Shown here: in pieces, positions 1,511-37,941 of the stretch | Position numbering within the stretch: the first letter of the stretch is position 1 | How the letters are laid out: each line of letters begins with the position of its first letter | Translations under genes and position numbers: made by a program | Notes under the pieces: generated by a model | Seen by the model: the letters and a program-made list of their open reading frames with translations, nothing else | The model's database searches: none | What the model was told of the DNA's origin: nothing | Assembly (NCBI GenBank): GCA_033581555.1 | Contig: JAVQSZ010000005.1 | Span: forward strand, 41,199 to 105,198 | Direction of reading: 5' to 3' | Origin: Nitrososphaerota archaeon | GTDB lineage: Archaea > Thermoproteota > Nitrososphaeria_A > Caldarchaeales > Calditenuaceae | Length of the DNA: 64,000 bases

Positions 1511-3003
<1,493 letters not shown>

Positions 3004-4365: not shown

Positions 4366-4387
4366 GGCTCGAATCGGACGCCCGGCT

Positions 4388-8022: not shown

Positions 8023-9087
8023 CTACCTCAACCCCGCCCTGATCCTCGGGTCGACGAGCGCGTAGACCAAGTCGAGGATGAAGACGGTGATCACCACGAG
8101 GTAGGCGTAGATGACTACCAGCCCTACTAGCACGGGCGTGTCGAAGATGTGGGCCGCCTCGTAGAAGAGCCTCCCGGTCCCGGGCCAGTTGAAGACCGTC
8201 TCGGTGATGATCGCGCCGGTCCAGGAGGCGACGAGCGTCAGGGAGAAGTCCGTTATTATCGGGGGCAGCGTCGGCCTCAGCACGTATCTCCTCCTCACAA
8301 GGTGCTCGGGAATTCCCTTGGCCTTCGCGACCTCGACGAAGTCCTCACTCGAGTAGATGAGGAAGAAGGTCCTCCTGCTGTAGATGCTGAAGAACGAGAA
8401 GGCGACGAGCCACGACATTATGGGGAGGATCATGTGCTTGAGGACGCTGAGCGCGTAGAGGAACCTATCCTCGGGAGGGGGAATGTCGACCATGCCGCCG
8501 TAGGGAAGGACCCTGAGCCACGAGGCGAAGACCAGGATCAGGAAGATGCCGTAGAACCACCCAGGTATCGCGGAGAGCGTCGCTAGGTAGGAGAAGGTCC
8601 TGTCCGTCTTGGTCCCGTATCTCCTGCTGAGGTAGAGGCCCCCGACGAGCCCGATCGCGAAGATCAGCATCTGCACTGTGGTGAAGAGGAGTATCGTGCT
8701 GGGTAGCCTCTCCAGTATGATCAACCTGACGCTCCTCGAGCCGGAGTCGCTGGTCAGGAACAGGGCCCTCCCGAGGTCGAGCGTTATCGCGTCCCTGAGG
8801 TAGATGAGGCTCCTGACGAAGAAGGGCTGGTCCAGTCCGAGCTCCCTGACCCTCTGGTTGAAGACCTCCATGACCAGCTGGTTGAAGGCGGTCTCGTTGA
8901 GCCCCCTGAACGCGGGGTTCTGCCTCAAGCTGGTGGAGACCTCGAAGAGCAGCTCGCCCTTCACGATCTCGTCGACGTAGCCCCCCATGTTCGCGACCAG
9001 TATCGTGAGGTAAACGGCCACCACTACGGTGAGCATGAGAACACCAGCTCGCTTGGCCAAGTAAACGGCTGCGCCGGGAATCTTCAT
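8023..9087 (-). CDS. peptide ABC transporter permease (OppB/DppB-type)
   Basis: 354 aa, 6 TM, conserved EAAHIFDTPVLVG-like EAA loop region; abuts oppC with no gap. Confidence 0.8.
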   Translation of the reverse strand: MKIPGAAVYLAKRAGVLMLTVVVAVYLTILVANMGGYVDEIVKGELLFEVSTSLRQNPAFRGLNETAFNQLVMEVFNQRVRELGLDQPFFVRSLIYLRDAITLDLGRALFLTSDSGSRSVRLIILERLPSTILLFTTVQMLIFAIGLVGGLYLSRRYGTKTDRTFSYLATLSAIPGWFYGIFLILVFASWLRVLPYGGMVDIPPPEDRFLYALSVLKHMILPIMSWLVAFSFFSIYSRRTFFLIYSSEDFVEVAKAKGIPEHLVRRRYVLRPTLPPIITDFSLTLVASWTGAIITETVFNWPGTGRLFYEAAHIFDTPVLVGLVVIYAYLVVITVFILDLVYALVDPRIRAGLR

Positions 9088-9140
9088 TCAACCCAAAAAA
9101 TGGGTCGTTGTGTTTATATAAGTTTCTGAAAATCCGGGGC

Positions 9141-12104: not shown

Positions 12105-12230
12105 CCCCCGGTAGCTCAGCCTGGTAGAGCGCCCGGCTGTAGGGTCAGGCCGTGGCCGTGGACCCGCCAGCCTACCAGGCCACACGACGCGGGGACCGGG
12201 TGGTCGCAGGTTCAAGTCCTGCCCGGGGGA
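12105..12230 (+). tRNA. tRNA-Tyr(GUA) with 52-nt intron after position 37
   Basis: Acceptor CCCCCGG/CCGGGGG, D-arm GCTC-AGCCTGGTA-GAGC, anticodon stem CCCGG/CCGGG with loop CUGUAG|intron(12143-12194)|A, T-arm GCAGG-TTCAAGT-CCTGC, C1:G72 and A73 (archaeal Tyr identity); no encoded CCA. Confidence 0.65.
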
Positions 12231-12330
12231 TTAGGTAACGCGCATATCCTGTTCCACAACTGGTGGTGGAGATCGAATAACGCCCAGTGAGTCATGTCCC
12301 TGTTGTTAGGAAATCAACCCATCACGTCAA

Positions 12331-12403
12331 GGCCGCGGGTGGGACTCGAACCCACGACCGCCGGGTCCACAGCCCGGAGTGCTGCCACTACACCACCGCG
12401 GCC
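12331..12403 (-). tRNA. tRNA-His(GUG)
   Basis: Minus-strand sequence G(-1)+GCCGCGG acceptor, anticodon loop CUGUGGA (GUG), T-arm GTGGG-TTCGAGT-CCCAC, discriminator C73 pairing with extra G-1 (His hallmark). Confidence 0.8.
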
Positions 12404-12854: not shown

Positions 12855-14093
12855 CTAGGACACATATTCTGCGTGTTGTGATATGTCAAGTCCTATGACC
12901 TCTTCCCGCGGTGGAACCCTAAGACCTATCGAGACGTCGATGAGCTTAACGATCAGCAACGTGACCACCGATGCGAAGGCCCAGGTCGCAGCTACACCGA
13001 TCAGCTGAGCCGCTATCAATGAAGGGTTGCCTGCCAGCAGACCGTTGACACCTGCGGGGTTGATGGAGGCATCCGCGAATATCCCAGTCGCTATCGCTCC
13101 CCAGGTACCACCCACGCCGTGAACACCCCAGACGTCGAGCGAGTCGTCAACTCCGAACCTCTGCCGCGCGTTAACCGCGATTGAGCATAGAACTCCTGCA
13201 ACAGCACCTATGACCAGCGCGGACGAGACGCTGACGAACCCCGCGGCCGGAGTTACTGCGACCAGACCTGCGACCGCACCGCTGGCTGCAGCGATGCTGC
13301 TGAACTTTCCCCTTGTGTAGTAGTTCGCGATGAGCCATGAAACGGCACCCGCAGAAGCAGCGGCGTGGGTGTTCAGAAAAGCCTGTGACGCCAACGAGCC
13401 GGATGCGAGCGCGCTGCCGGCGTTGAACCCGTACCATCCGAACCACAGGAGCGCAGCTCCCAAGATGACATAGGTCGGGTTACTTGGCTCAAAGGAGGAG
13501 TTGCCATAGCCGAGTCGCCTACCGAGAACGAGTGCAGCCACCAACGCCGACACTCCAGAGCTGATGTGGACGACTGTACCTCCCGCGAAGTCAAGCGCCC
13601 CTATCCCCCTGAGCCATCCACCGCCCCCCCAAACCCAGTGAGCCAGCGGAGAGTAAACGAACGTCGACCAAGCGACGAGGAAGATCAGGAAGGACCCGAA
13701 CTTGACCCTCTCCGCGAACGCACCCGCGATCAGCGCGGGCGTGATCACGGCGAACATCATCTGGTATATCGCATACGTTGAGTGTGGCACGGTCGCGGCG
13801 TAGTCGGGGTTTGGATCAGGGCCGACACCGTTCAGGCCGAACCATTCCAGACCACCGATGAGACCGAATCGATCAGGTCCGAAGGCCAGGCTGTATCCCC
13901 AGAGTATCCACACGATCGAGATGACGCCGACCGCGGCGAAGCACTGGAACAACGTCGATACGACGTTCTTCTTCCTCGCCAGCCCCGCGTAGAAGAACCC
14001 GAGCCCAGGCGTCATTATCATCACCATCGCCGTCGAGGTCAGCAGCCACGCAGTATCTCCCGTGTCCGTTCCCACGGACATCGACCCCCACAT
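12855..14093 (-). CDS. amt: ammonium transporter
   Basis: 412 aa, about 11 TM; Amt/MEP motifs (DFAGGTVVHISSG, GAVAGLVAVTPAAG); amt-glnK pair. Confidence 0.9.
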   Translation of the reverse strand: MWGSMSVGTDTGDTAWLLTSTAMVMIMTPGLGFFYAGLARKKNVVSTLFQCFAAVGVISIVWILWGYSLAFGPDRFGLIGGLEWFGLNGVGPDPNPDYAATVPHSTYAIYQMMFAVITPALIAGAFAERVKFGSFLIFLVAWSTFVYSPLAHWVWGGGGWLRGIGALDFAGGTVVHISSGVSALVAALVLGRRLGYGNSSFEPSNPTYVILGAALLWFGWYGFNAGSALASGSLASQAFLNTHAAASAGAVSWLIANYYTRGKFSSIAAASGAVAGLVAVTPAAGFVSVSSALVIGAVAGVLCSIAVNARQRFGVDDSLDVWGVHGVGGTWGAIATGIFADASINPAGVNGLLAGNPSLIAAQLIGVAATWAFASVVTLLIVKLIDVSIGLRVPPREEVIGLDISQHAEYVS

Positions 14094-14099
14094 CCGCGA

Positions 14100-14230
14100 C
14101 CTCTAAATAAGAATTCGGGAGTCTATTGAGCAATTGTAGATCAGAAATCGGACTTTATGGATGAGTTTTTTAAAAATTTGTTAAAATTTTGAACAAACAT
14201 CGAAAACATCAATCGAATTTGACTCGTGAA
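14100..14230 (-). promoter_or_regulatory. AT-rich upstream region of amt-glnK containing 21-bp near-palindrome TTTGTTAAAATTTTGAACAAA (14177-14197)
   Basis: Strong AT island in a GC-rich genome; inverted repeat TTTGTT-N9-AACAAA 85-105 nt upstream of amt start; TATA-like TTATTTAG adjacent to start. Confidence 0.3.
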
Positions 14231-14359
14231 GAGGGCCTTTCTTTTGACGAACAGCTAGGGACCGACGAATTGCTCGGTCATTTAACGAGAAGACAGACGG
14301 AGAAGCCCATAGTTGTGAGGTACGGACCGATTAGGAGGCGCGGACGCCGCGCCGTAGTT

Positions 14360-24349: not shown

Positions 24350-26092
24350 ATGGTCAAGGTCCACGGGCCGCTCGAGGAGGCGAGGCCTGCGCTGAGGAGG
24401 GTCTACGTCAGGGAGGTGGTGCTCGAGAACTTCATGTCGCACGAGTACAGCAGGGTCAGGGTCTCCAGAGGGATCAACCTGATCACCGGACCTAACGGCG
24501 CCGGGAAGTCCTCGATATTGCTCGGGATATCGGTCGCGCTGGGCCAGAGCTACACCGAGAGGGGCGAGAGGCTCGCGGACCTCATCAGGAGGGGCAGGGA
24601 CTCGGCGAGGGTATCGGTCGTGCTCGACAACTCGCCGGTCGACGGCGAGCGCCCCGTCAGGTCCATCCCGCTGGACACCATCACGATCACCCGTTACATC
24701 AAGAGGACCGGGGAGTACTGGCACTACGTCAACAACAGGTTCAGGACGAAGGCCGAGGTCGACCAGCTCCTCAGGTCGCTGGGGATCAACCCGAACAACC
24801 TCCTGATCGTGATGCACCAGAACATGATAGAGGAGTTCGCGGCCCGCGACGACTCCGAGAAGCTCAGGATGCTCGAGGACGCGGTCGGGCTATCCTCAAT
24901 GAGGGAGAGGATCCTGCAGGCTCAGGAGAGGCTCTCGTCCCTAATGGGCGAGGTGAACGCCGTGAGGAGGGCCCTCGAGGAGGCAGCGGCCGCCGTCGAG
25001 TACTGGAAGTCCGAGGTCGAGAAGCTCTCGAGGAAGAGGGAGCTCGAGTCGAGGAGGACGGCCCTTGAGCTGGAGTTCCTCTGGAGCCTCGCGAGGTCGA
25101 CCGAGCTCGCTGTGAGGAGGAAGTCGGAGCTGCTCGATCAGGTCAGGTCGGAGCTCTTTGGTCTCAGGGCCGAGGAGGCCGAGGTCTCCGAGACGCTGAG
25201 GTCGAGGAGGTCGGCGCTCGCGGAGCTGCTGAGGTCGGGAGGCGGCGACGTCGAGTCGGTCCTGAGGGAAGTCGACGGGCTGATCGAACTGGCGGCGCGG
25301 AGGGGCGTGATCGGGTACAGGATCGGCGAGCTGGAGAGGGAGGGCAGGGCCCTCGAGAGGGAGATCAGGGCCCTCGAGAGGGAGCTCGACGAGAGGGTCA
25401 GGGCCGCGTCGGAGAGGGGGCCGCGGGTCGAGACCGACCGGGAGCCCTCCGAGGTCCAGGAGGAGCTGAAGTTCGTCGCGCTCCAGCTCTCCTCGTTCGG
25501 GACCGTCGTCGGCGAGGCGGAGGAGATGTACTTCATGGCGGACTCGAAGTTCAGGAGCCTCCAGATCAGGGCCGAGGAGCTGGAGCAGAACGTCAGGAGG
25601 GCGCTCGAGGAGGTCGAGCACCGGAAGAGGGTCTGGAGGGAGAAGCTCGAGGAGCTGGTCAGCGAGGTCAACCCCGTCTACGATGAGATCCTCTCCAGCG
25701 TTGGAGGCACCGGCGCGATCAGGGTCAGGGGGCTCGAGGACCCGGCGACCGCGAGGCTCGAGCTCTACGCCGGCTTCAGGGGCAACCCGGCGACGCTCCT
25801 CGACGCGAGGGCCCACAGCGGCGGCGAGAGGGTGCTGGCGACGCTGGGCTTCCTACTCGCGGTCCAATCGAGGGTCAAGTCGCCCTTCAGGGCCGTCGAC
25901 GAGTTCGACGTCCACCTCGACCCGCTGAACAGGGAGAGGATGATGACGATGCTGCTCGAGACCGCCCGGAGGCACGGCGACGTCCAGTACATCATCATCA
26001 CGCCCGGCAGGGTCCCCGAGATGGAGGGCGTCAACCTGATCGTGGTCCAGAACGTCTCGGGCCGCTCCATCGTGACCGGTGGTCAGGGATGA
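24350..26092 (+). CDS. SMC-like ABC ATPase with short (about 250 aa) coiled coil
   Basis: 580 aa; N-terminal LENFMSHEY...ITGPNGAGKSSIL (Walker A), Q-loop-like VMHQN, long coiled coil, C-terminal signature HSGGERVLATL and Walker B VDEFDVHLD; no Zn-hook CxxC so not Rad50. Confidence 0.75.
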   Translation: MVKVHGPLEEARPALRRVYVREVVLENFMSHEYSRVRVSRGINLITGPNGAGKSSILLGISVALGQSYTERGERLADLIRRGRDSARVSVVLDNSPVDGERPVRSIPLDTITITRYIKRTGEYWHYVNNRFRTKAEVDQLLRSLGINPNNLLIVMHQNMIEEFAARDDSEKLRMLEDAVGLSSMRERILQAQERLSSLMGEVNAVRRALEEAAAAVEYWKSEVEKLSRKRELESRRTALELEFLWSLARSTELAVRRKSELLDQVRSELFGLRAEEAEVSETLRSRRSALAELLRSGGGDVESVLREVDGLIELAARRGVIGYRIGELEREGRALEREIRALERELDERVRAASERGPRVETDREPSEVQEELKFVALQLSSFGTVVGEAEEMYFMADSKFRSLQIRAEELEQNVRRALEEVEHRKRVWREKLEELVSEVNPVYDEILSSVGGTGAIRVRGLEDPATARLELYAGFRGNPATLLDARAHSGGERVLATLGFLLAVQSRVKSPFRAVDEFDVHLDPLNRERMMTMLLETARRHGDVQYIIITPGRVPEMEGVNLIVVQNVSGRSIVTGGQG

Positions 26093-26835
26093 GGCCGGTG
26101 GAGGTAAGGGTGGAGGAGCTGAGGAGGATGGCGGCGGCCCTCGAGTCGGTCCTCAGCATGAAGGTCGAGCCCTTCACCGTCAACGTCGCCTCGCTCCTCA
26201 GGAGGCTCAGGTCGATCGTCGAGGAGAGCAGGGACCTCGAGACGGTCGTCCTCGACGCCGAGGTCCTCTACAGGGTCTCGGTGGTCCTGGGGCTCCAGCA
26301 GAGGTACATCCTCCAGAGCGCCTCCTCACTCCTGATCGACTCCCAGCTGGTCGTCGCGAAGGTCCTCAGGTCCGAGCCCCACGAGCTCGCCGCGGCCCTC
26401 GTCTCGGCCTGGCGACCGATCGCGAGGGTCGAGCACGTCACCACACCCCTTCTCGTCAGGGCTTACGAACACTTCCTCTCGCTCCCGGGGAAGCCGGTGA
26501 GGATCGAGGCCGGGCTATCCGCCGAGGAGAGGGCTCCGGGATGGGAGGCCTACGAGGCCGCGTTCGAGGAGGAGCTGAGGTCGCTGAAGTCGGAGCTCGA
26601 GTCCGAGGGAGGCTGGGTCGACTACTGGGAGTTCGTCTCGAGGGAGGGCGAACGCCGGAGGGCCAGCAGGGCGTATCTCCTGAGCTTCCTCATCACCCGA
26701 GGCGAGATTGAGGTCCAGTACGACCCGCTCAGGGAGGAGATCAGGGTAATGGCCGCGACCGCCCCACAGCAGAGGAGGGAGGGCGACGTCCTCTCCCTGG
26801 TGATATCGCTGGGCCGGATGGGGCGGGGCGGCTGA
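26089..26835 (+). CDS. kleisin-like (ScpA-like) protein, translationally coupled to SMC-like gene
   Basis: 248 aa; ATGA stop/start overlap with upstream gene; helical N-terminus and C-terminal RAYLLSFLITRGEIEVQYDPLREEIRV resembling ScpA C-terminal winged-helix consensus (vtFLAiLEL...i.v.Q...f.dI.i). Confidence 0.4.
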   Translation: MRPVEVRVEELRRMAAALESVLSMKVEPFTVNVASLLRRLRSIVEESRDLETVVLDAEVLYRVSVVLGLQQRYILQSASSLLIDSQLVVAKVLRSEPHELAAALVSAWRPIARVEHVTTPLLVRAYEHFLSLPGKPVRIEAGLSAEERAPGWEAYEAAFEEELRSLKSELESEGGWVDYWEFVSREGERRRASRAYLLSFLITRGEIEVQYDPLREEIRVMAATAPQQRREGDVLSLVISLGRMGRGG

Positions 26836-27259: not shown

Positions 27260-29432
27260 GCTGCTGGACCTGAACTTCACGCCCGACGGCGAGGCGGTCG
27301 AGCTCTGGCTCAGGCTCGGCGAGTCCGAGGTCGAGAGGGTCCGAGTCGAGTGGATGCCCTCGGTCTGCGCGGTAGGGCCCGGAGGCGCGCTCGAGGAGCT
27401 CGCGAGGGCGTTCTGTGAGCGCTCGGAGCTGGTGACGGCCTCCGAGGAGCCCGGGAGGGATCCCAGGCCGGCGTTGAGGATCAGGGCGAAGGCCTGGGAG
27501 AGGAGAGAGGTCGCGAGGCTTATCGAGTCGTCCTTCGGAAGGTCAGGAGTCAGGGTCTACGACGTCGACGTCCCGGCGCTCCAGCAGTTCCTCTATGAGC
27601 ACGGGCTCTTCCCGACCGCGCTGGTCGAGGTCTCCGGAGACCGGCTGAGGACCATCGACTCGAGGGAGGACGCGGACTACGACGTCTCGTGGGTCAGGGT
27701 CGCGGAGCTCGAAGTCTCGACGCGGCGAGGCTCAGCTTACCCGGGCCTCGACGAGCCCCTGGGTTCCGTGAGGCTGACCTCGAGGGAGGGGGAGGTGGAG
27801 CTGGACGGCGACGAGCCCGGCGTCCTCGAGGAGCTGATGAGGGCGGTGGAGCCCTTCGACGTGCTGTTGGTCAAAGGCGGCGACTCTTTCGCGATGCACT
27901 ACCTCCGCCACAGGGCGTCGGTGAACGGCGTCGAGCTCGAGCTGGGGAGGGAGAGGTCTCCGAGACCGAGGAGGGGCTCGAGGGCCTACTGGAGCTACGG
28001 CAGGGTCTACAGGAGGCACAGCGCCTTCAGGTTGAGGGGAAGGGTCCACGTCGACCCTCTCAACTCCTTCGTCTACTCCCACACGGGGCTCTTCGGCCTC
28101 CTCGAGGTCGCGAGGACCTGCGTAGTCCCGCTCCACGACGCCGCAAGGTACACGATCGGGCAGTGCATGACCTCCCTCCAGTTCGAGGTCGCGAGCAGGA
28201 GGAAAGCGCTGGTGCCCTGGAGGGCCGGGAGACCGCTCTACTTCACCCTCGGGGAGCTCAGCGTGATGGACAGGGGAGGACTCACGCTTGACCACAGACC
28301 CGGAGTCTACTGGGGAGTCGCGGAGGTGGACTTCCAGAGCATGTACCCGATGATCATCCTGACGAGGAACGTCAGCGCGGAGACCGTGAACTGCGGGTGC
28401 TGCGGCGGCCGCGGGACGCCGATCCCGGAGATAGGAGGCCACACCTGCTCGAGGAGGGTAGGGCTGGTCCCGGAGGCGATATCGCTCCCTCTCAGGAAGA
28501 GGCTCGCGTACAAGTCGATGCTTAGGGAGGGAAAGGGCGACCCGGAGGTCCTCAGGGCGAGGTCGGACGCGCTGAAGTGGGTACTCGTCTCCTCCTTCGG
28601 GTATCTGGGCTTCAGGAAGGCGAAGTTCGGGTCTAGGCTCGCCCACATGGCCGTCTGCGCCCACGCCAGGGACGCGCTGCTGAGGGCGGTAAGGGTCGCG
28701 GAGCGAATGGGCTTCGAGGTCGTCCACGGGATCGTCGACTCGCTCTGGGTCAGGAGGGAGGGTGCAGCCGAGGAGGATTACTCGGAGCTGGTGAGGGCGA
28801 TCGAAGAGGAGACCGGCCTGCCCGCGGCCCTCGAGGGGACCTACAGGTGGATCGCGTTCCTCCCCTCGAAGTCCTCCCCCCTCAGGCCCGTGAACGGGAG
28901 GTACTTCGGCTTCAGGACCGACGGCAGGGCCAAGTTCAGGGGGATTGAGGCGAGGAGGTCGGACACGCCGCCGCTGGTCGCGAGGATGCAGCTGGAGATG
29001 CTCGAAGTCCTCTCGAGGGTCGAAGCCCCGCAGGACCTGCCTGGAGCGGTGGAGGAGTGCTTCGGTGTGCTGAGGAGGTACGAGAGGGACCTGGTGCTGG
29101 GGAGGGTCGGAGTGGAGGACTTGGTGGTGACGGTGAGGCTCTCGAGGGACCCCTTCGGCTACTTCAACAGGGTCAGGCAGGCGGTCGCCGCGAGGAGGCT
29201 CCTGAGGATGGGCGTGGAGGTGGGGGCCGGGAGCGTCGTCAGCTACGTCGCCCTCGGGGACAGCTCCGCGCCCTACCCATCGGAGAAGCCCATAAGTCCG
29301 GCCTGTTGCTCGACGGAGTTCTACCTGAACGCGCTCAGAAGGGCCGCGGAGACGATCCTCTCGCCGCTGGTCCGTGCGGTCGCTGGGGCACGCGGCGGAC
29401 CAGTCCCCGTCAGGGCCTCAGCAACACCTTGA
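27249..29432 (+). CDS. family-B DNA polymerase-like protein with degenerate exonuclease motifs and altered motif C (PolB2/Dpo2-like)
   Basis: 727 aa; N-terminal LLDLNFTPDGEAVELWLRL like PolB N-domain; Pol motif A VDFQSMYPMIIL, motif B KWVLVSSFGYLG, motif C HGIVDS (canonical YGDTDS has lost first Asp); Exo I/II/III acidic residues not conserved (AELEV, GDSFAMHYL). Confidence 0.75.
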   Translation: MIGRLLDLNFTPDGEAVELWLRLGESEVERVRVEWMPSVCAVGPGGALEELARAFCERSELVTASEEPGRDPRPALRIRAKAWERREVARLIESSFGRSGVRVYDVDVPALQQFLYEHGLFPTALVEVSGDRLRTIDSREDADYDVSWVRVAELEVSTRRGSAYPGLDEPLGSVRLTSREGEVELDGDEPGVLEELMRAVEPFDVLLVKGGDSFAMHYLRHRASVNGVELELGRERSPRPRRGSRAYWSYGRVYRRHSAFRLRGRVHVDPLNSFVYSHTGLFGLLEVARTCVVPLHDAARYTIGQCMTSLQFEVASRRKALVPWRAGRPLYFTLGELSVMDRGGLTLDHRPGVYWGVAEVDFQSMYPMIILTRNVSAETVNCGCCGGRGTPIPEIGGHTCSRRVGLVPEAISLPLRKRLAYKSMLREGKGDPEVLRARSDALKWVLVSSFGYLGFRKAKFGSRLAHMAVCAHARDALLRAVRVAERMGFEVVHGIVDSLWVRREGAAEEDYSELVRAIEEETGLPAALEGTYRWIAFLPSKSSPLRPVNGRYFGFRTDGRAKFRGIEARRSDTPPLVARMQLEMLEVLSRVEAPQDLPGAVEECFGVLRRYERDLVLGRVGVEDLVVTVRLSRDPFGYFNRVRQAVAARRLLRMGVEVGAGSVVSYVALGDSSAPYPSEKPISPACCSTEFYLNALRRAAETILSPLVRAVAGARGGPVPVRASATP

Positions 29433-30369
29433 GCGTCCCTGGAGACGACGCGGACGCAAAGGCCTCCCTGTGCTCCTCGAGCCTGTGAACGGCGTCGACC
29501 AGCCTCCTGACGTCGACCAGTCCCCTCTCGAGCGCCCTGATGGCCGGCCTGAAGGGCCCGCACCTCGAGCCCACGACGTGGACTTCATCGACGACGACCT
29601 TCGCGAGGTCGATCCTGTAATCGGCTGCGATCGTCGACTTCAGGACCAAGTAGCCCCGCGGCCTGACGAGCTTCAGCGCGGTCGCCAACCCCTCCGCCCT
29701 CCCGGTGGCCTCGACCACGAGGTCGTAGGAGGACTCCTCGCCCGGGGCCACGCCCTCGACCGCGTCGATCCCGAGCTCTCTCAGCAACCCGACCTTCCTC
29801 CCGTGCTTCCCGATCACCCTCAGCCTCGAGACCCTGTCCCTCAAGACCTGAGCGATCAGGTTAGCGAGCCTCCCGTCGCCGACCACGCAGGCGCTCCAGC
29901 TGGGGTCGACATGGACCTGCTCGAGGACCTCGAAGGCCGCAGCGAGGGGCTCCACGAAGACCGCCCTCTCGTCTTCCACCGAGTCCGGGACCCTGTGGAG
30001 GTTCTCGACCGGGAGCCTCAGGTACTCCGCGAACGCACCGTCCCTTCCCTTGATCCCGAGGACCGTCCTGCTCCTGCAGTGCCTCCTCAGCCCTATCGAG
30101 CACATGTCGCACCTTCCGCAGGCGGCGTTGATCTCGCCCACCACCCTCGCGCCCACGAGGTCGCTCCTGTCAGACTCGACCACCTCGCCGACGAACTCGT
30201 GCCCCGGCACCCCCTTGAAGCCCGCGTAGCCCTTGAGTATCTGGAGGTCGGTGCCGCATATCCCTGCGAGCCTGACTTTGATCAGCACCTCCCCGTCCCG
30301 CTCGACCCTATGGTCCTCGACGAGCCTGATCTCCCTGCCGTTGAAGTAGAGGGCCCTGCACTCCACCAT
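29410..30369 (-). CDS. zinc-dependent alcohol/threonine dehydrogenase (MDR family)
   Basis: GICGTDLQ...GHEFVGEV, structural Zn CGRCDMC, Rossmann VVGDGRLANLIAQVL. Confidence 0.8.
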   Translation of the reverse strand: MVECRALYFNGREIRLVEDHRVERDGEVLIKVRLAGICGTDLQILKGYAGFKGVPGHEFVGEVVESDRSDLVGARVVGEINAACGRCDMCSIGLRRHCRSRTVLGIKGRDGAFAEYLRLPVENLHRVPDSVEDERAVFVEPLAAAFEVLEQVHVDPSWSACVVGDGRLANLIAQVLRDRVSRLRVIGKHGRKVGLLRELGIDAVEGVAPGEESSYDLVVEATGRAEGLATALKLVRPRGYLVLKSTIAADYRIDLAKVVVDEVHVVGSRCGPFRPAIRALERGLVDVRRLVDAVHRLEEHREAFASASSPGTLKVLLRP

Positions 30370-30370
30370 C

Positions 30371-31168
30371 TCAGATCACGTGCGGGAAGACGACGCCGTA
30401 ACCGTTCAGCCTCAGGTAGACCGAGAACGCCGCGAGGAAGAGGACCGTCGCGGTGAAGGCCGCGTCCCTGGCCCTGAACCTCAGGTCCAACAGGTAGCTC
30501 CTCTTCGCCGTCGGGACGAAACCCCTCGACTCAATCGCGAGCGGCAGCTCCCCGAACCTCCGCATCGTCGTGATGAAGAGCGGCACGATGACCGCCGCGG
30601 AGTTCCTCATCCTCGAGAAGACGTTGCCCTTGACCAGGTTGACGCCCCTCGCCCTCTGGGCAGCGAGAATCGTCAGTCCGTCACCGACCATCGCTGGGAT
30701 GAACCTGAAGACCGCGGAGACCCCGAAGGCCATCGAATAGGGCATCCCGAGCTTCGTCAGCGCGAGCTCCAAGTCCTCGATCCTCGAGGTGGTGAGGAGC
30801 AGGAGGCCCGAGAGGACCATCGCGACGAGCCTGAAGGCGACCGCGAGGGCGTACATCACCGACTCCTGCGTGAACGTTACCCCCGCGAGCTGAATGAGGA
30901 CCGTCTCTCCGCCCCTCCTGAAGAGCGGCCAGAGGACCAGGCTCATGACTGCCAGCGAGACTAGCCCAAACCAGAACATCTTCAGCCTCGAGGCGACTCC
31001 AGACGCAAGGACCATCGCGAGCACCGCAGCCAAGACGGTCCCCGTGTAGAGCGGGTGGTTGAAGACCGAGGACCAGACGAAGACGCAGACGACGAACGCG
31101 ATCTTCGCCCTAGGGTCGAGGGAGTGGAAGAAGCTCCGGCCCTCGACGTAAAGGATGTACTTCGTCAC
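30371..31168 (-). CDS. ECF transporter transmembrane (T) component (CbiQ/EcfT)
   Basis: 265 aa, 5-6 TM, CbiQ-like; directly downstream of duplicated ECF ATPase. Confidence 0.7.
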   Translation of the reverse strand: MTKYILYVEGRSFFHSLDPRAKIAFVVCVFVWSSVFNHPLYTGTVLAAVLAMVLASGVASRLKMFWFGLVSLAVMSLVLWPLFRRGGETVLIQLAGVTFTQESVMYALAVAFRLVAMVLSGLLLLTTSRIEDLELALTKLGMPYSMAFGVSAVFRFIPAMVGDGLTILAAQRARGVNLVKGNVFSRMRNSAAVIVPLFITTMRRFGELPLAIESRGFVPTAKRSYLLDLRFRARDAAFTATVLFLAAFSVYLRLNGYGVVFPHVI

Positions 31169-31169
31169 C

Positions 31170-32849
31170 TCAGCCCACCTCCACGTGCTCTAAGAACTCC
31201 CTCGGCGTGAGGAGCGTCACGCCCGCCACCCTCCTCGAGAGCTCGCAGGTCTCCGGCGGGAAGATGTCGTGCTGCGCCAGGAGCTCGGCGTTGGAGAAGG
31301 CGACCCTCGTCGGAGCGTCGAGGACGATCCGGCCGTCGGCCATCATGACGGTCCTCGTGCAGTACTCGGCCACGACCCACATCTCGTGGGTTATGGTGAT
31401 GACCGTCGTCCCAGCCCTGTTCAGGTTGAGCACCGTGTTCATCAGGGCCCTCGTCTCGCCGGGCGAGAGGCCGGTCGTGGGCTCGTCGAGGATGACGACC
31501 CTTGGGTTCAGGGCCAGTATCGAGGCGACCGCGACCCTCTGCCTCTCGCCCTTCTGAAGGAAGAACGGGTCCTCGTTGAGGAGGCGCGTTATCCCCATCA
31601 TCTCCGCGACCTCCCTAACCCTCCTGTCAACTTCGGCCTCGCTGAGGCCCCTTGCCCTGAGGCCGTACGCAAGCTCCTCGTAGACCGTCTGCGAGAATAT
31701 CTGGTAGTCGGGGTTCTGGAAGATGTACCCGACGTCCTTAGCCCTCTCGGAGACGTCCTCCGCCGTCGCGTCCCTCCCGAAGATCCTCACCCTGCCCCTC
31801 TTCGGCCTCAGGATCCCCATGATCACCTGAGCGAGCGTAGTCTTCCCGCTCCCGTTCTGCCCGATCAGCGCCAGCATCTCTCCCTGGTGGACCCTGAAGT
31901 CAACGCCCTTCAGGACCCAGTTCTGGCCATCGTAGGCGAACCAGACGTCCTCGAGCTCCACGGCGAGGCCGTCGCCCGGGGCAGGCCTCTCCTCCGGCGT
32001 CCTCACCCTCTTGACCCTAGGGAAGACCCGCAGGGCCTCGTCGAGCAGAACAGGGACCGAGTTGCTCCTGACCCTCATGTCCCAGCAGATCTCCGCGACC
32101 TCCGGCGGCTTCAGCCCAAGCGACCTGAGCTCCTCGACCATCCCTAGTACCTCCTTCGCATCCCCCTCCACCGCCACCTTGCCGTCGACCAAAAGGATGA
32201 CCCTGTCTGCGAACTCCGCGACCTTCTCGAGGCGGTGGTCGACCAAGACCAGCGATTTGATCACCTCCTCGTCCAGCAGCCTCCTCATCACGTCGTAGAC
32301 CTCCCTCTTCCCCCTCGGGTCGAGGTCGCTCGTGGCCTCGTCGAGTATCAGGACCGAGGGCTGCAGCGAGAGCAGCGAGGCTATCGCGAGCCTCTGCTTC
32401 TGCCCCCCACTGAGCGCGAACGAGTACCTCTTCTCTAAGCCCGTGAGCCCCACGAGGTCCAGGGCCCACTTGACCCTCCTCCTGATCTCCTCCCTCTCAA
32501 GTTGGAGGTTCTCCGGCCCGAAGGCGACCTCAAGCTCGACGGTCGTCCTGAAGAGCTGGACCTCGTAGTCCTGCATCACCATCGCGCAACTCTTGCTGAT
32601 CTCCCCGACCCGCTTAGACGTCGTCACCTCCCCGTACACCCTCGCCTCTCCCCTGAAGTCGTCGTAGACGCCCATGTTAGGTATCAGGCCGGCCATCACC
32701 TTGCAAAGGGTCGTCTTGCCGGCGCCCGTGGGCCCGATGATCGCAACGACCTCGCCCTCCGAGACCTCAGCGCTGACGCCCTTTAGCGCGTAGTCGTTCG
32801 AGCCGCGGTACTTCACCCAGACGTCCCTTACCTCGACGGCCTTCACCAT
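31170..32849 (-). CDS. ECF transporter fused tandem ATPase (EcfA1-EcfA2 / CbiO duplicated)
   Basis: 559 aa with two ABC cassettes: GPTGAGKTT...LSGGQKQR...ILDEATSDLD and GQNGSGKTT...LQKGERQR...ILDEPTTGL. Confidence 0.85.
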   Translation of the reverse strand: MVKAVEVRDVWVKYRGSNDYALKGVSAEVSEGEVVAIIGPTGAGKTTLCKVMAGLIPNMGVYDDFRGEARVYGEVTTSKRVGEISKSCAMVMQDYEVQLFRTTVELEVAFGPENLQLEREEIRRRVKWALDLVGLTGLEKRYSFALSGGQKQRLAIASLLSLQPSVLILDEATSDLDPRGKREVYDVMRRLLDEEVIKSLVLVDHRLEKVAEFADRVILLVDGKVAVEGDAKEVLGMVEELRSLGLKPPEVAEICWDMRVRSNSVPVLLDEALRVFPRVKRVRTPEERPAPGDGLAVELEDVWFAYDGQNWVLKGVDFRVHQGEMLALIGQNGSGKTTLAQVIMGILRPKRGRVRIFGRDATAEDVSERAKDVGYIFQNPDYQIFSQTVYEELAYGLRARGLSEAEVDRRVREVAEMMGITRLLNEDPFFLQKGERQRVAVASILALNPRVVILDEPTTGLSPGETRALMNTVLNLNRAGTTVITITHEMWVVAEYCTRTVMMADGRIVLDAPTRVAFSNAELLAQHDIFPPETCELSRRVAGVTLLTPREFLEHVEVG

Positions 32850-32933
32850 GGGACGGCCATCAATCCTCTCGCCCTAAAGATATACGCTGAGAGCTGACGG
32901 GTACAGGTTGAGAGGGACCGAAAAATTCGGGCT

Positions 32934-33746
32934 TCAGTCCTTCGCCAGCAGCGCCATCCCGACCGCGAAGATAAGGATGAAGACGCCGCCAACCGTCAGG
33001 AGGGGCGCGCCCGCGAAGACCGGTGCGAACTGCAGCAGCGGCTGGCCTAGCCCCACACCGACCAGTATCGTGACCCAGGTGCCCACGACGCCCGCGACGA
33101 AGACCAACGCGGTCCCGATCCTGTGATAGGACTTGACCTCCGACGGAGTGTACTGGTAACCCTTCATCACGTCGGTCCAGAGCCAGCCCGCCCTCTTCGC
33201 CCTCGGGTAGACGAGGGCCATCAGGATCGGGGCGATGATGCCCGCAGAGATCAACTCGTTGAAGAAGATGATGAACGCGAGGAAAGTGAACGGCACGAAC
33301 CCGACCAGCTCGGTCCAGTAGGGGATTATCAGCGCGACGACTCCCGAGTGCACCAGTATCACGAACTCGTACTTCAGGAGGCTCGAGAGCGTCCTGCAGT
33401 GCGGCTCCTCCCTGAAGACCCTGTGCCAGATCTTGTAAGGCACGAGCCCGAGGAAGAAGTTCCCGATGAACCCGCCGATGCTCCCGATCGTCAGCGCCCC
33501 GCCCAATATGTCGAAGCCTATCAGGTTCCCCACGGCCGAGCCCCACGCAGCCGCCGGCCCGAAGAGCAGGCTGGTGAACGGAGGTATCGCGTTGCCAGGC
33601 CTTATCGCGGTGACGCCAGGAATGATCCATATCGGGAGCGCCGCGAAGACGAAGAGCAGCGCGGCGTAGAGTCCTGCGGAGACGACGAACGCCGTGATCA
33701 TCTGCGTGTAGCGCCACATCGTGAAGATTTCCCTCATGACGTCCAT
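32934..33746 (-). CDS. putative ECF transporter substrate-specific (S) component
   Basis: About 270 aa from internal Met MDVMREIF (ORF extends to 33836); 6-7 TM with Gly-rich helices (GSAVGNLIGFDILGG, GSIGGFIGNFFLG) typical of S components; first gene of ECF operon. Confidence 0.5.
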   Translation of the reverse strand: MDVMREIFTMWRYTQMITAFVVSAGLYAALLFVFAALPIWIIPGVTAIRPGNAIPPFTSLLFGPAAAWGSAVGNLIGFDILGGALTIGSIGGFIGNFFLGLVPYKIWHRVFREEPHCRTLSSLLKYEFVILVHSGVVALIIPYWTELVGFVPFTFLAFIIFFNELISAGIIAPILMALVYPRAKRAGWLWTDVMKGYQYTPSEVKSYHRIGTALVFVAGVVGTWVTILVGVGLGQPLLQFAPVFAGAPLLTVGGVFILIFAVGMALLAKD

Positions 33747-33859
33747 GATCGCTCGACTCGGTATAAAACAGTTCCGACGCGTGGCTCGCCAAGTAAAATC
33801 AGCCCGAGGCGCAGAGACGCAACACGGCTTCGACACGCGACGGCCCGGTCGCGGTTGTT

Positions 33860-33992
33860 CGCCAGCTCTAATCTTAAATATGAAACAAAAGCTTTAAATC
33901 AACGTCCCATGAGGATTTGAAGTGTGCGTATATGTAGTTTATATAATCTATATGCAATATTTAAATCTGAACCAAAAACCTCTATTACAGCC
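33860..33992. promoter_or_regulatory. strongly AT-rich divergent promoter region (ECF operon on minus, crenactin locus on plus) with multiple TATA-like boxes
   Basis: About 130 nt at greatly reduced GC versus flanks: ...ttaaatatgaaacaaaagctttaaatc...atatgtagtttatataatctatatgcaatatttaaatc... Confidence 0.35.
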
Positions 33993-34196
33993 ATGGCGGT
34001 GGTGCAGAACCAGGTCAGGAAGGAGGAGAAGGTCGTCACGAGGAGGAGCTATGCGGCCGGCTACAGGTACTGCTCGAGGTGCAGGGTCTACCACCTGACC
34101 GACAGCGTGAGGTGCCCATACTGCGGGATCCTCCTGAGGAACTCGCCTAGGAAGAAGAAGCCGGTGGACCCATCGAAGTACGTCAGGATCGAGTGA
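33993..34196 (+). CDS. small zinc-ribbon protein (C-x2-C-x12-C-x2-C) with basic C-terminal tail
   Basis: 67 aa from Met at 33993 (ORF track starts 33924 in AT-rich DNA); CSRCRVYHLTDSVRCPYCG; 76 nt upstream of crenactin. Confidence 0.5.
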   Translation: MAVVQNQVRKEEKVVTRRSYAAGYRYCSRCRVYHLTDSVRCPYCGILLRNSPRKKKPVDPSKYVRIE

Positions 34197-34272
34197 GCTC
34201 AAGCTGAGCTGGGCGGCAACGGACCGAAGAGCCCGATAAGCTATTAGACGACCTGGGCCTCCCCCCAGCGGA

Positions 34273-35538
34273 GTGTGGGAGGAGGAGTACAAGCGGAGGT
34301 ACGTCTTCGCCGCCGATTACGGGACCAGCGACTACAAGTACGGGCCGATAACGCTCGGCGAGCGGCCGCAGGTCATCGAGAACAGGGGCTACTTCCCGGA
34401 GCCCTCGATCGTCTCGAGGATAATGGGCGTCGAGAGGGAGGTCGTCGTGGGCAAGGACGTCGTGCTCTTCCTCGAGAGCGGCGCGGACTTGCTGAGCAGG
34501 ATGGTTTACCCTATGAGGAGCGGGATCGTGGGCAAGGACGACGCGAGGGCATGGAAGGTGATAAGGGAGCTGACGAGGGCCTCACTGGAGGAGTTCAGGC
34601 CGAAGGGCGTGGGGTTCAACGGGTTTTACGTCGTCGCGGCGCTCTCCGCGGTCGCACCGAGGTACATGTACGAGCGGCTCTTCGAGGTCCACTCCGAGCT
34701 CGCGAAAGAGGGACTGGTCCACTCCTCGACGATCATACCGCAGCCCCTCGCCGTCGCCATCGCCCACAAGGCGACCTCATGCGTCGTCGTGGAGAGCGGG
34801 CACGGAAACACCCAGGTCACGCCGATCTCGAGGGCCCCGATCAGGGGAGCAGTCGTGGCCCTGAACAGAGGAGGGGCCGACGCGAACGCGATTACCGCGG
34901 AGATCCTCAAGGACGCGGGGTACGGCGACCTCGCGAAGGAGGAGGCGCTCGTGAGGAGGGTGAAGGAGCACCTCGGCCTGCTTCCGCTCGACTTGGACCG
35001 CGCGGTCTCCTTCGCGAGGTCGAACCCCTCCCTAGTCCATAAGGCGATCAAGGTCCCGGGGACCAGGATCAGGATCGACCTCGGAGAGAACTCTTGGGCG
35101 AGGTTCCTGATCGGCGAGTACGTCTTCGACCCGAACAAGGAGGTCTTCGAGAGCTACTTCAAGCGCGGGATGCCCAGGCCGAAGGACGTGAAGTTCGGCG
35201 ACACGGTCTTCTACGGCACCACAACGGTGGCCGACGCGATCATCTCCGCGGTCGAGAAGTGCCCGGTGGAGCTCCAGCCTTACCTCTACTCGCAGATCAT
35301 CCTCTCGGGAGGGAACCTTTCGTGGTCGGTCCCGCAGGAGCTGAGGGGCGTGGCCTCTGACGCGGCCGCCAGGGTCAAGAAGGACCTCTCGGAGAGGGGA
35401 GTGGAGAACGTCAACGTCAGGTCCTCCGAGGAGCCCCAGTTCACGGTCTGGAGGGGCTGCATAGTCTTCGGGTACTCGGTCCCCGCGAACTATGAGTGGT
35501 CCTGGGAGAGGATGGAGGGATGGATGAGGTTCAGGTGA
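34273..35538 (+). CDS. crenactin (archaeal actin homolog)
   Basis: 421 aa; actin-fold phosphate-1 VFAADYGTSDYKYG, GIVGKDDARAWKVIREL, phosphate-2 VVESGHGNTQVTPI, adenosine motif IILSGGNLSWSVPQEL; size matches crenactin (about 430 aa). Confidence 0.85.
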   Translation: MWEEEYKRRYVFAADYGTSDYKYGPITLGERPQVIENRGYFPEPSIVSRIMGVEREVVVGKDVVLFLESGADLLSRMVYPMRSGIVGKDDARAWKVIRELTRASLEEFRPKGVGFNGFYVVAALSAVAPRYMYERLFEVHSELAKEGLVHSSTIIPQPLAVAIAHKATSCVVVESGHGNTQVTPISRAPIRGAVVALNRGGADANAITAEILKDAGYGDLAKEEALVRRVKEHLGLLPLDLDRAVSFARSNPSLVHKAIKVPGTRIRIDLGENSWARFLIGEYVFDPNKEVFESYFKRGMPRPKDVKFGDTVFYGTTTVADAIISAVEKCPVELQPYLYSQIILSGGNLSWSVPQELRGVASDAAARVKKDLSERGVENVNVRSSEEPQFTVWRGCIVFGYSVPANYEWSWERMEGWMRFR

Positions 35539-35544
35539 GGCCTT

Positions 35545-36588
35545 TTGGGGTGCGACGTGCTCTTCGACGTCCTTACACCGAAGCAAGCCCTCTTCTTCTG
35601 GGCCGTAGGCCGAGAGCTCGAGGCCCGAGGGATCGAGGTCTCCTACGTCGCTAGGGACTACGAGCAGCTGGACTGGGTCGAGCGCGAGCTTCGGCTCGGG
35701 GCCCTGAAGGTAGGGAGGTTCGGCGGGGAGGGGCTCGAGGGGAAGCTGGTCGCGAGCACCGAGAGGCAGGCGGCCCTCATCGATGTCCTCAAGGAGCTCA
35801 GACCGAAGATCGCGGCCTCGAGCGGGTCGATCGAGCTCTGCAGGGTCGCCTACGGACTCGCGGTCAGGCACTACCTCGCCTCCGACACGCCCCACTCGCC
35901 GGTGAACAGGGTCTGCGTCCCGCTCTCCGACCTCGTCGCGACTCCCCGCTACATCCCAGTCTCGGAGTGGAGGAGGTGGGCAACTCCCTCGACCAGGTTC
36001 CTGAGGTACAGGGCCCTCGACCCGATCGCGTGGATCAGGAGGCTGGAGGGCCCGGTGAGTCGTAGTGCGGGGAGGAGGTACGTCCTCGTCAGGCCGCCGG
36101 AGAGGAAGGCGAGCTACCTCAGATCGGGTGGTCTGGAGGAGACCTCGGCGGTGATCCGGGCCCTCAGATCCAACTACGAAGGCGAGGTGCTGGTGGTCGC
36201 GAGGTACAGGGACGACGCCTCCCAACTCTCGGGGGTCTCCGGAGACCGGGTGAAGGTGTTGAACGAGCCGACGCTACTGCTGCCGCTGATCGCCGGCGCC
36301 GACGCGGTCTTCTCGGGCGGCGGAACCACGGCCCAAGAGGCCGCACTGCTCGGCGTCCCTACATTCACCTTCTACCCCGGCGAGATACCTGCAGTCCACA
36401 GGTTCCTGATCAGGAGGGGGCTGCTGAAGGAGGTAGACCCTGAAAAGCGTTCGATTGCGGCGGCGATCGAGCTCGCGATGGAGTCCGGGTTCCGAAGGAG
36501 GCTGATGGAGAGGGCGAGGAGGCTGAGGGGCTCAATGGAGGACCCCGCTGAGGCCCTCGCGAACGCTATTGCGGCTGGACTGGAGTAG
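35545..36588 (+). CDS. DUF354-like GT-B-fold protein (glycosyltransferase/epimerase-like)
   Basis: 347 aa; C-terminal Rossmann GADAVFSGGGTTAQEAALLGVPTFTF as in MurG/2-epimerase GT-B C-domains; 6 nt downstream of crenactin. Confidence 0.55.
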   Translation: MGCDVLFDVLTPKQALFFWAVGRELEARGIEVSYVARDYEQLDWVERELRLGALKVGRFGGEGLEGKLVASTERQAALIDVLKELRPKIAASSGSIELCRVAYGLAVRHYLASDTPHSPVNRVCVPLSDLVATPRYIPVSEWRRWATPSTRFLRYRALDPIAWIRRLEGPVSRSAGRRYVLVRPPERKASYLRSGGLEETSAVIRALRSNYEGEVLVVARYRDDASQLSGVSGDRVKVLNEPTLLLPLIAGADAVFSGGGTTAQEAALLGVPTFTFYPGEIPAVHRFLIRRGLLKEVDPEKRSIAAAIELAMESGFRRRLMERARRLRGSMEDPAEALANAIAAGLE

Positions 36589-36690
36589 CTTGATGGACCG
36601 GCGACTCAGATGGCAGCCAGGTGGTAGGCGCTGAGGGTCTTCGCGGACCTGCAGATCCACTCGAGGTACTCGGGGGCCACGTCGACCAAG

Positions 36691-37941
36691 ATGACCCTCG
36701 ACGAACTGGTCTACTACGCCGACCTCAAGGGAATAGACCTGATGGGGACCGGAGACGCCCTTCACCCGCTCTGGCTGAGGGAGCTGATCGAGAACACCGT
36801 GGAGGTCTCGCAGGGCGTCTACGCGTACAAAGGAGGAGGGAGGGTGAAGTTCGTCGCGCAGACGGAGGTCGCGACCGTCCACGACTACGCCGGGAGGACG
36901 CGGAAGATCCACCACGTGATCCTCATGCCGAGCCTCGAGGTCGCTGGCCAGCTCTCGGACGCGCTGAGGGGGTACGGGAACGTCGAGTCCGACGGGAGGC
37001 CAGTTCTGAACGTCAGGCCGAGCGAACTGGTCGAGGTCGTCCTTCAGACGGAACCCAGGTGCTACGTCTTCCCCGCACACGCCTGGACTCCCTGGTGGTC
37101 GATCTTCGGGGCCTTCAGTGGCGTCGACGCGGTAGAGGAGTGCTACGAGGACAAGGCCGACCGGATCCATGCGATCGAGACCGGGTTGAGCAGCGACCCG
37201 CCGATGAACTGGAGGGTGAGCTCGCTCGATCGATACCTGCTGGTCAGCTCCTCTGACTCCCACAGCCCCTACCCCTATAGGATAGGGAGGGAGATGGTCG
37301 TCCTCGAGCTGAAGGACCTCTCATACGACGGCCTCTACGCCGCCCTCACCCGCTCCCCGGGCCCTTCGATGGCGGTCATGACGGTCGAGGTCCCCCCGAG
37401 CTACGGGAAGTACCACTGGTCGGGACACAGGAGGTGCGGGGTGGGTCCGCTGAGCCCGAAGGAGGCGAAGAGGCTGAACTACGTCTGCCCGAGGTGCGGG
37501 AGGAGGCTCACGAAGGGCGTCGAGGACAGGGTCGAGGAGCTCGCCGACAGGCCTGAGGGTTACAGGCCGGAGGGCGCCCTAGACTTCGTCTACGTACTGC
37601 CGCTGCAAGAGCTGATCGCCCTGAGCAGGGGCGAGGACCCGAACGCGACCAACCTGATGTCCAAGGCGATATGGGGCGAGTACGTGAGGATGGTCGGGGC
37701 CTTCGGGAGCGAGATTCGGGCCCTCCTCGAGGCGCCAGTCGGGGAGATCGCGAGGCTCACCGACCCGGTACTCGCTCGGCTGATCGAGAGGATGAGGAGG
37801 AACCAGCTAGAAGTCGTGCCCGGGTACGACGGCCTCTACGGAAGGGTCAAGCTGCCTGAGGGCATCGGCGCCAGCGCTAGGAAGATGACGCCGAAGTCCG
37901 AGGTCGGGAGGAGGCGCACTAAGACCCTCGACGAGTACTGA
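36691..37941 (+). CDS. PHP-domain phosphoesterase with internal Zn ribbon (COG1379-like)
   Basis: 416 aa from first ATG; PHP motifs (FADLQIHSRYS encoded just upstream of this ATG, HHVILMPS, FPAHAW, SSSDSH) and CPRCGRR zinc ribbon; true N-terminus unresolved (see findings). Confidence 0.65.
   Translation: MTLDELVYYADLKGIDLMGTGDALHPLWLRELIENTVEVSQGVYAYKGGGRVKFVAQTEVATVHDYAGRTRKIHHVILMPSLEVAGQLSDALRGYGNVESDGRPVLNVRPSELVEVVLQTEPRCYVFPAHAWTPWWSIFGAFSGVDAVEECYEDKADRIHAIETGLSSDPPMNWRVSSLDRYLLVSSSDSHSPYPYRIGREMVVLELKDLSYDGLYAALTRSPGPSMAVMTVEVPPSYGKYHWSGHRRCGVGPLSPKEAKRLNYVCPRCGRRLTKGVEDRVEELADRPEGYRPEGALDFVYVLPLQELIALSRGEDPNATNLMSKAIWGEYVRMVGAFGSEIRALLEAPVGEIARLTDPVLARLIERMRRNQLEVVPGYDGLYGRVKLPEGIGASARKMTPKSEVGRRRTKTLDEY

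Follow-up and report, generated by a model that had tools for sequence, protein, structure and literature searches.

The crenactin locus

Crenactin is an ATP-dependent actin-like protein that polymerises into filaments. A gene for it lies on contig JAVQSZ010000005.1 from a hot-spring Nitrososphaerota archaeon of the Calditenuaceae, in the 64,000-nucleotide stretch (positions 41,199 to 105,198) that was analysed here and is called the window. Four genes follow one another on the forward strand: a small gene for a basic zinc (Zn)-ribbon protein; crenactin; a gene for a DUF354 protein; and a gene that an earlier note, made from the sequence alone, had described as a PHP phosphoesterase with a Zn ribbon. 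That note had found no arcadin gene beside crenactin. It proposed a rearranged locus or an alternative set of crenactin partners, with the Zn-ribbon and DUF354 proteins as candidates for new cytoskeleton-associated factors. Comparison with other archaeal loci favours a simpler account, in which an orthodox crenactin has probably been separated from arcadin-2 by rearrangement, and its present neighbours are unrelated, ordinary genes.

The actin-fold assignment made in the earlier note is well founded. The protein shows full-length homology to structurally characterised crenactin (PDB 4cj7/5ly3; E=8e-111, residues 4-418), and scores 559 bits over positions 1-422 of the NCBIfam crenactin model NF053560 and 54 bits against Pfam Actin (cutoff 27). 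The ATP-site motifs DYGTS and ESGHGNTQ are invariant across the crenactin alignment. The window protein is 97%, 91% and 90% identical to crenactins from three Caldarchaeales/Calditenuaceae metagenome-assembled genomes (MAGs; loci L001-L003), and its 90% cluster includes all three. Some homologues at 57-75% identity carry the JGI label 'crenactin', as do some 90%-cluster members of the Calditenuis and second-clade crenactins discussed below. Judged by its sequence, this is an orthodox archaeal actin gene, whose product would be expected, by analogy, to share the biochemical behaviour of the characterised protein.

The nearest crenactins belong to Caldarchaeales/"Aigarchaeota" MAGs, and NCBI taxonomy places Calditenuaceae as a family in the order Caldarchaeales, phylum Nitrososphaerota. 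Pyrobaculum, the reference chosen in the earlier note, is therefore the wrong comparator; the proper norm is the organism's own order, where sister genera keep an adjacent arcadin-2. Crenactin has already been described in Caldiarchaeum (PMC4571572), and Caldarchaeales were noted earlier to encode arcadin-1 and arcadin-2 (Culexarchaeia preprint). The occurrence of crenactin and arcadin-2 in the order is already known, and the only new element here is the uncoupling of the two genes documented in Calditenuaceae.

Arcadin-2 as the usual neighbour

The reference set comprised 80 crenactin loci, one genome per species, with all open reading frames (ORFs) within 6 kb clustered. In 67 of these loci, across the TACK archaea, the gene immediately beside crenactin, on the same strand, encodes a distant homologue of arcadin-2. 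It is a protein of 200-280 residues ending in LPSF/Y..DNPW..ILS. Its gene lies upstream of crenactin in 15 Caldarchaeales loci (L007-L019, L021 and L026), most often about 35 nt away, and downstream with a gap of about zero in 52 loci from Bathyarchaeia, Brockarchaeia, Wolframiiraptor, Geocrenenecus, Culexarchaeia and Methanomethylicia (L041 is counted, its gene being cut by the contig end). Against the NCBIfam arcadin-2 model Rkd2 the homologues align along the entire model, though under the equivalog cutoff (E=6.7e-11 and 1.4e-5). Each has a globular domain at the N-terminus, followed by a coiled coil, a linker and a C-terminal tail that is conserved and contains Trp. This layout fits published arcadin-2, whose last 17 residues, a C-terminal helix, bind the hydrophobic groove of crenactin and depolymerise its filaments (PMC5173319).

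The neighbour is missing in only 13 of the 80 loci: those of the window's own clade (L001-L006), and those of a second Calditenuaceae clade (L020, L022-L025, L027 and L028). A hidden Markov model (HMM) built from 66 arcadin-2 homologues, together with a search for the C-terminal motif, found no match in the 64-kb window or in the flanks of L001-L006 (10-kb flanks for L001-L003, where the contig allows). The arcadin (Rkd) models, among which the presence of Rkd1 and Rkd3 in NCBIfam is unconfirmed, matched neither the neighbours nor ten small ORFs of the window, and the Zn-ribbon profile did not match the arcadin-1 structure (PDB 5LY5) at E<=10. The absence of an adjacent arcadin is thus a genuine, clade-specific departure from the norm, and by the same synteny comparison the suggestion of a rearranged locus stands.

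Other genes recur next to crenactin elsewhere. Outside Caldarchaeales (L030-L080), a gene for about 175-240 residues ends 3-145 nt before crenactin (clusters 7, 42 and 43). In 19 loci, arcadin-2 is followed by a gene for a Cys-rich protein of 95-110 residues with the pattern CP..x11..CxxCP (cluster 14). Neither product matched any arcadin model or PDB entry; the upstream gene was rejected as arcadin-1, with no match to 5LY5 or the models. Both may be additional components of an arcade module that spans the TACK archaea.

The second clade has its own gene directly upstream of crenactin (at ~9050-9920). It encodes a protein of about 285 residues with an N-terminal Zn ribbon, a P/Q-rich linker and a long coiled coil, and with weak Pfam matches (CdvA-like, E=4.7e-5; GvpG-like, E=4.2e-5). 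A diverged arcadin-2 was considered and rejected (hhalign probability <2%). The window contains no homologue of this protein, whose HMM also misses the 67-residue protein. The two "Zn-ribbon" neighbours share the motif only. The second-clade protein may be a clade-specific crenactin-associated candidate.

Arcadin-2 away from crenactin

A metagenome scan with the Caldarchaeales arcadin-2 alignment gave 79 loci from the best 80 of 184 matches. Among these, 53 have an adjacent crenactin, 15 do not, and 11 are not assessable (15 of 68 assessable loci); the class without crenactin was restricted to loci with at least 1.5 kb of sequence on both sides of arcadin-2. The LPSFL.DNPW tail is kept in all of the stand-alone copies. 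They include the highest-GC loci listed, with 12 of the 15 at a GC fraction of 0.56-0.63, and the window's clade, at 0.57-0.65, overlaps this range. Two stand-alone contexts are conserved: PEP synthase / SDR / arcadin-2 / KaiC-like ATPase / CarA, and PriL-like / arcadin-2. In Calditenuis (L125, L157, L127, L130 and L135, ~4000-5700), arcadin-2 lies immediately 5' of the genes for a KaiC/RecA-like ATPase and a predicted regulator of 180 residues. This Calditenuis neighbourhood (PEP synthase, SDR, KaiC-like ATPase and CarA) was sought in the window and is absent.

Locus tags place both genes in the same MAGs. By exact-sequence look-up, the arcadin-2 of L125 clusters at >=90% with MDJ0273801.1 (Ca. 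Calditenuis fumarioli), QXP81_05745 and QXO17_04925; the Calditenuis crenactin cluster holds MDJ0275099.1 (Ca. C. fumarioli; L006), QXP81_00985 and QXO17_02290. The second-clade pair consists of crenactin RQ798_00010 (L028) and arcadin-2 RQ798_04125. These genomes therefore keep both genes, crenactin and an intact arcadin-2, about 100 to 800 genes apart: in the sister genus Calditenuis and in the second clade, arcadin-2 has moved to another place. Pelearchaeum, also placed in Calditenuaceae, has arcadin-2 adjacent to crenactin, and adjacency is therefore probably ancestral in the family.

The genes around crenactin

Features of the locus are collected in Table 1. The coordinates and lengths of the four ORFs agree with those in the earlier note; counted from its first ATG, the last gene encodes 416 residues.

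Table 1. Features at and near the crenactin gene, in window coordinates
Feature	Coordinates	Strand	Remarks
Zn-ribbon ORF	33924-34196	+	conserved ATG at 33993
AT-rich divergent promoter region (putative)	33837..33992	.	between QueT-like gene (-) and Zn-ribbon gene (+)
Basic C4 Zn-ribbon gene, 67 aa	33993..34196	+	RpoP-like, below threshold
Crenactin (archaeal actin), 421 aa	34273..35538	+	GTG start
DUF354 protein, GT-B fold, 347 aa	35545..36588	+	predicted nucleotide-sugar enzyme
Endonuclease Q, PHP + Zn-binding + C-terminal helical domains	36631..37941	+	probable CTG start; first ATG 36691
Short SMC-family ATPase, 580 aa	24350..26092	+	context only, outside crenactin locus

The Zn-ribbon protein is indeed small and basic: counted from the ATG at 33993 it has 16 Lys/Arg against 5 Asp/Glu, and its motif is CxxC-x10-CxxC. 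It belongs to a family of proteins of 65-90 residues, with orthologues 62-80% identical in other crenactin-encoding lineages. A 40-residue core, RRSYA.GY.YCSRCRVY.LTDSVRCPYCGILLRNSPRKKK, varies hardly at all among 38 homologues; the crenactins of these lineages are only 60-70% identical.

In the other lineages this gene keeps different company. All 12 loci sampled there (L081-L092, where in most it lies at about 6001-6250) show it divergently paired with a gene for an AbrB/PhoU-domain protein of about 350 residues, and none has a crenactin within 6 kb. The next gene encodes an M20 peptidase (seven loci) or a family-B DNA polymerase (four loci), or is unannotated (L088). Family-B DNA polymerase genes are often nearby. 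L086 and L046 come from the same MAG, where crenactin and arcadin-2 lie on a contig other than that of the Zn-ribbon gene. By locus tags, crenactin and Zn-ribbon genes are about 80-90 genes apart in three MAGs (NZ929_04520/_04950; J7J94_02920/_02460; ABDH32_03060/_02665). Within 10 kb of the other 74 crenactins there is no convincing Zn-ribbon copy, the sole weak match (41%) being on the opposite strand in L056, and the AbrB/PhoU partner gene was sought in the window and is absent. The Zn-ribbon protein is not a conserved crenactin partner, and this unlinking, the kind of finding that the earlier note itself had named as counting against its idea, weakens the case for it as a new cytoskeletal factor.

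The one family resemblance shown throughout is to RNA polymerase subunit P (RpoP). The NCBIfam RpoP model is matched by all 38 members, in every case below cutoff (best E=9.4e-6, about 23 bits, and 22.8 for the window protein, against 72); a PDB profile search gave RpoP at E=0.29. The match is consistent but below threshold, a resemblance only, and a bona fide RpoP (Rpo12) was rejected. Ribosomal eL40 was rejected as well, with no NCBIfam or Pfam eL40 match in the 38 members and fold matches at E>=0.3. An AlphaFold2 (AF2) model (pLDDT 81-87 in the core) returned only generic Zn-ribbon folds, also at E>=0.3. From its sequence, the family may represent a divergent Rpo12 of the lineage, or a subunit of the core machinery that has so far gone unrecognised.

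The next gene is a DUF354 member, as had been proposed (Pfam PF04007, 106.9 bits, E=1.5e-30, cutoff 22). Its AF2 model (pLDDT 92) has the two Rossmann domains of a GT-B fold, and Foldseek retrieves GT1 glycosyltransferases and UDP-GlcNAc 2-epimerases (E 1e-13 to 1e-11, TM 0.6-0.72). The model thus predicts a nucleotide-sugar enzyme, either a glycosyltransferase or 2-epimerase-like. The 6-nt gap between the crenactin stop and the DUF354 start measures as claimed and suggests co-transcription, in this genus only. Among the reference loci, DUF354 abuts crenactin (within about 10 nt) only in L001-L003. In L004 and L006 a further gene intervenes, putting DUF354 about 0.8 kb downstream; L005 has no DUF354 downstream; in six second-clade loci (among L022-L028) it is 4.2 kb downstream on the opposite strand; and the other 69 crenactin loci have none. 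Homologues are widespread, in Caldarchaeum, Nitrososphaera, Baldrarchaeota and Asgard archaea. Two of three sampled DUF354 loci adjoin sugar or glycan genes and none adjoins actin: the first has Glycos_transf_4 and a GFO_IDH_MocA oxidoreductase; the second, a GFO_IDH_MocA oxidoreductase, a hexapeptide transferase and an aminotransferase. This distribution speaks against DUF354 as a new cytoskeletal factor.

The description of the fourth gene was right about its PHP and Zn-binding domains but needs correction as to identity and start. It aligns with Pyrococcus furiosus PfuEndoQ (PDB 5zb8) at E=1.6e-67 over chain residues 3-386 when the ORF is extended to a CTG, and at 6e-62 from the ATG; TIGR00375 scores 190 bits. 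By these matches the gene encodes Endonuclease Q (EndoQ), a lesion-specific DNA-repair nuclease (PMC4357722, PMC5961232). An N-terminal VFADLQIHSRYS is in frame and conserved in the window and L001-L003. Positions 36631-36690 encode the conserved N-terminus VFADLQIHSRYSGATS; following the previous stop codon this segment offers no ATG, GTG or TTG, and a CTG start at 36631 is therefore likely. EndoQ is next to crenactin in only 3 of the 80 loci.

The SMC-like gene that had been noted 8 kb from crenactin is present at 24350, but as a member of the canonical SMC family and no arcadin-4 partner. It scores 175 bits against NCBIfam SMC_prok_A, and Pfam SMC_N spans residues 19-552. The arcadin-4 model Rkd4 gives 31 bits against a cutoff of 860, over residues 20-94 (the P-loop) only. 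Arcadin-4 was rejected on the far higher SMC score and on the 8-kb distance, with unrelated genes between. This short ATPase has a complete split head, and an ORF of 248 residues that matches no family has a 4-nt overlap with the stop of the ATPase gene (24350-26835); the two could be an SMC-like/accessory pair.

The AT-rich island placed by the earlier note before crenactin is real and extreme, but it lies about 280 nt upstream of crenactin, between the QueT-like and Zn-ribbon genes. GC is 0.31 across 33860-33990, with a minimum of 0.275 in 120 nt; the window has a mean of 0.645 (standard deviation 0.048). Only six islands in the window fall below 0.45, and this one is among the two most extreme. 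(An equally extreme island, intergenic and with a minimum GC of 0.28, lies at 14058-14306.) A TATA-like ATTTAAAT lies about 25-32 nt 5' of the Zn-ribbon ATG at 33993 and is kept in L001-L006. The island is a putative promoter region of the Zn-ribbon and QueT genes. The spacer from the Zn-ribbon gene to crenactin is 76 nt and carries GATAAGCTATTAGACGA, conserved at the genus level only; this is a candidate weaker element that may place a crenactin promoter within the spacer.

Upstream, at 29410-33836, PolB and the Zn-ribbon gene are separated by genes for an alcohol dehydrogenase and for an ECF-type transporter module (CbiQ, a duplicated ABC ATPase and a QueT-like S component). The same genes occupy this position in L001 and L002 but are missing from L003-L006, where PolB is directly 5' of the Zn-ribbon gene. 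Farther away, the window holds a 16S rRNA gene at 1514-3003 (-), with no 23S rRNA detected in the window. It also holds, at 12105-12230 (+) and 12330-12403 (-), tRNA-His plus a 126-nt Rfam tRNA match missed by ARAGORN, the latter probably an intron-containing tRNA.

Relocation, loss or recruitment

The account that we think probable runs as follows. A genome rearrangement would have split crenactin from arcadin-2 in this lineage, leaving crenactin between an RpoP-like Zn-ribbon gene, a GT-B DUF354 enzyme and EndoQ, whose functions appear unrelated. The present arrangement would be a recent local juxtaposition and no conserved functional module. Crenactin and DUF354 probably share a transcript within this genus, as a putative operon that may take in the Zn-ribbon gene as well. 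Transcription of crenactin may start at the putative strong AT-rich promoter ahead of the Zn-ribbon gene, or at a weaker element of its own within the 76-nt spacer. Arcadin-2 would most likely be encoded elsewhere in the window's genome and still regulate crenactin: the tail of the distantly encoded protein would bind the hydrophobic groove, depolymerising or sequestering crenactin. Relocation rather than loss is expected in the window's own genome, by analogy, because the sister genus that shares the Zn-ribbon-crenactin arrangement keeps arcadin-2. The alternative partner set proposed earlier fares poorly, with the Zn-ribbon gene unlinked elsewhere, DUF354 and EndoQ local, and arcadin-2 kept in the sister genus.

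Several points weigh against this account. The 559 bits of the crenactin do not reach the NCBIfam equivalog cutoff of 630, a modest shortfall that might reflect a model derived mostly from Thermoproteales. In 7 of 7 clade genomes (the window and L001-L006), the gene just 5' of crenactin and on its strand is the Zn-ribbon gene, 76-128 nt away. The 13 exceptional loci include 11 with a DUF354 gene within 5 kb of crenactin, a proximity that on synteny alone leaves room for a clade-specific functional link. No arcadin-2 of the window's own genus (prefixes NZ953, NZ957, NZ988 and ABDH63) is found among the named cluster members, and the search for one covered 64 kb plus about 20 kb of flanks. Finally, in an unbootstrapped neighbour-joining tree of crenactins the two exceptional clades are not sisters. 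This and their different arcadin-2 contexts suggest two separate uncoupling events, a number that is uncertain with such a tree.

True loss of arcadin-2 in the window's genus, leaving a crenactin without such a sequestering factor or otherwise regulated, seems unlikely. It agrees with the failure to find arcadin-2 in the 64-kb window or the 10-kb flanks of L001-L003, with the missing prefixes, and with the absence of the Calditenuis arcadin-2 neighbourhood from the window. However, the search covered a small fraction of the genome, the closest sister genus and the second exceptional clade both keep arcadin-2 elsewhere, and the metagenomic matches listed are the best 80 of 184, so that the genus's copy could be missed.

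Clade-specific recruitment, in which the Zn-ribbon protein, DUF354 or both became functional partners of crenactin after the uncoupling, is quite improbable. One possibility under this heading is an actin-like cytoskeleton tied to envelope glycan synthesis, by analogy with bacterial MreB/MurG. The conserved Zn-ribbon gene upstream would suit such a history, as would the GT-B fold of DUF354 and its position: 6 nt after crenactin in the window, at most about 10 nt after it in L001-L003, and nearby in L004, L006 and L022-L028. Yet in every other lineage sampled the Zn-ribbon orthologues (62-80% identical) are away from crenactin, with another conserved partner; DUF354 is absent from 69 crenactin loci and has sugar-gene contexts elsewhere; even within the clade L005 lacks the downstream DUF354, and L004 and L006 have an intervening gene; and the sister genus retains an arcadin-2 with its crenactin-binding tail. 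That crenactin has been wired into a new operon with the GT-B enzyme, and possibly the Zn-ribbon protein, to couple the filament to envelope-glycan synthesis in the way that MreB is linked with MurG in bacteria, is hardly to be expected.

Adjacency to crenactin is an unsafe guide to new cytoskeletal partners, arcadin-2 being the sole TACK-wide conserved neighbour. The crenactin/arcadin-2 linkage can be broken without gene loss, which calls for caution in guilt-by-association annotation. The locus adds a small data point on the evolution of the archaeal actin module, with Calditenuaceae providing natural cases of crenactin and arcadin-2 at separate loci. As a lineage-specific juxtaposition of ordinary genes, its overall importance is modest only.

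Comparison with known systems

The EndoQ of the window aligns with PfuEndoQ (PDB 5zb8; PMC5961232) over the PHP, Zn-binding and helical domains. It differs in that metal ligand His8 is replaced by Gln and Zn-site Cys249 by His, and in its apparent CTG start. According to the PfuEndoQ study, conservation of the PHP metal ligands is complete and that of the Zn-site cysteines is high; the H8A mutant keeps about half of the activity (PMC5961232).

The arcade cluster of Pyrobaculum calidifontis comprises crenactin and arcadin-1 to -4 (Ettema 2011, Izore 2016, PMC5173319). The window crenactin is a clear homologue of the protein solved from that organism. The host there belongs to Thermoproteales, whereas the window comes from Caldarchaeales and has no detected adjacent arcadins.

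Closer to hand is the arcadin-2/crenactin pair of Caldarchaeum, Terraquivivens, Pelearchaeum, Bathyarchaeia, Brockarchaeia, Wolframiiraptor and Geocrenenecus, from the same order or superphylum and with crenactins 60-75% identical. The arcadin-2 slot of these lineages (upstream in Caldarchaeales, downstream in the others) is filled in the window by the Zn-ribbon gene upstream and DUF354 downstream.

Closest is the sister genus Candidatus Calditenuis (L004-L006), which shows the same Zn-ribbon-crenactin arrangement and likewise no adjacent arcadin-2. It differs in that DUF354 is separated by another gene or absent, EndoQ is missing, and arcadin-2 is documented elsewhere in the genome.

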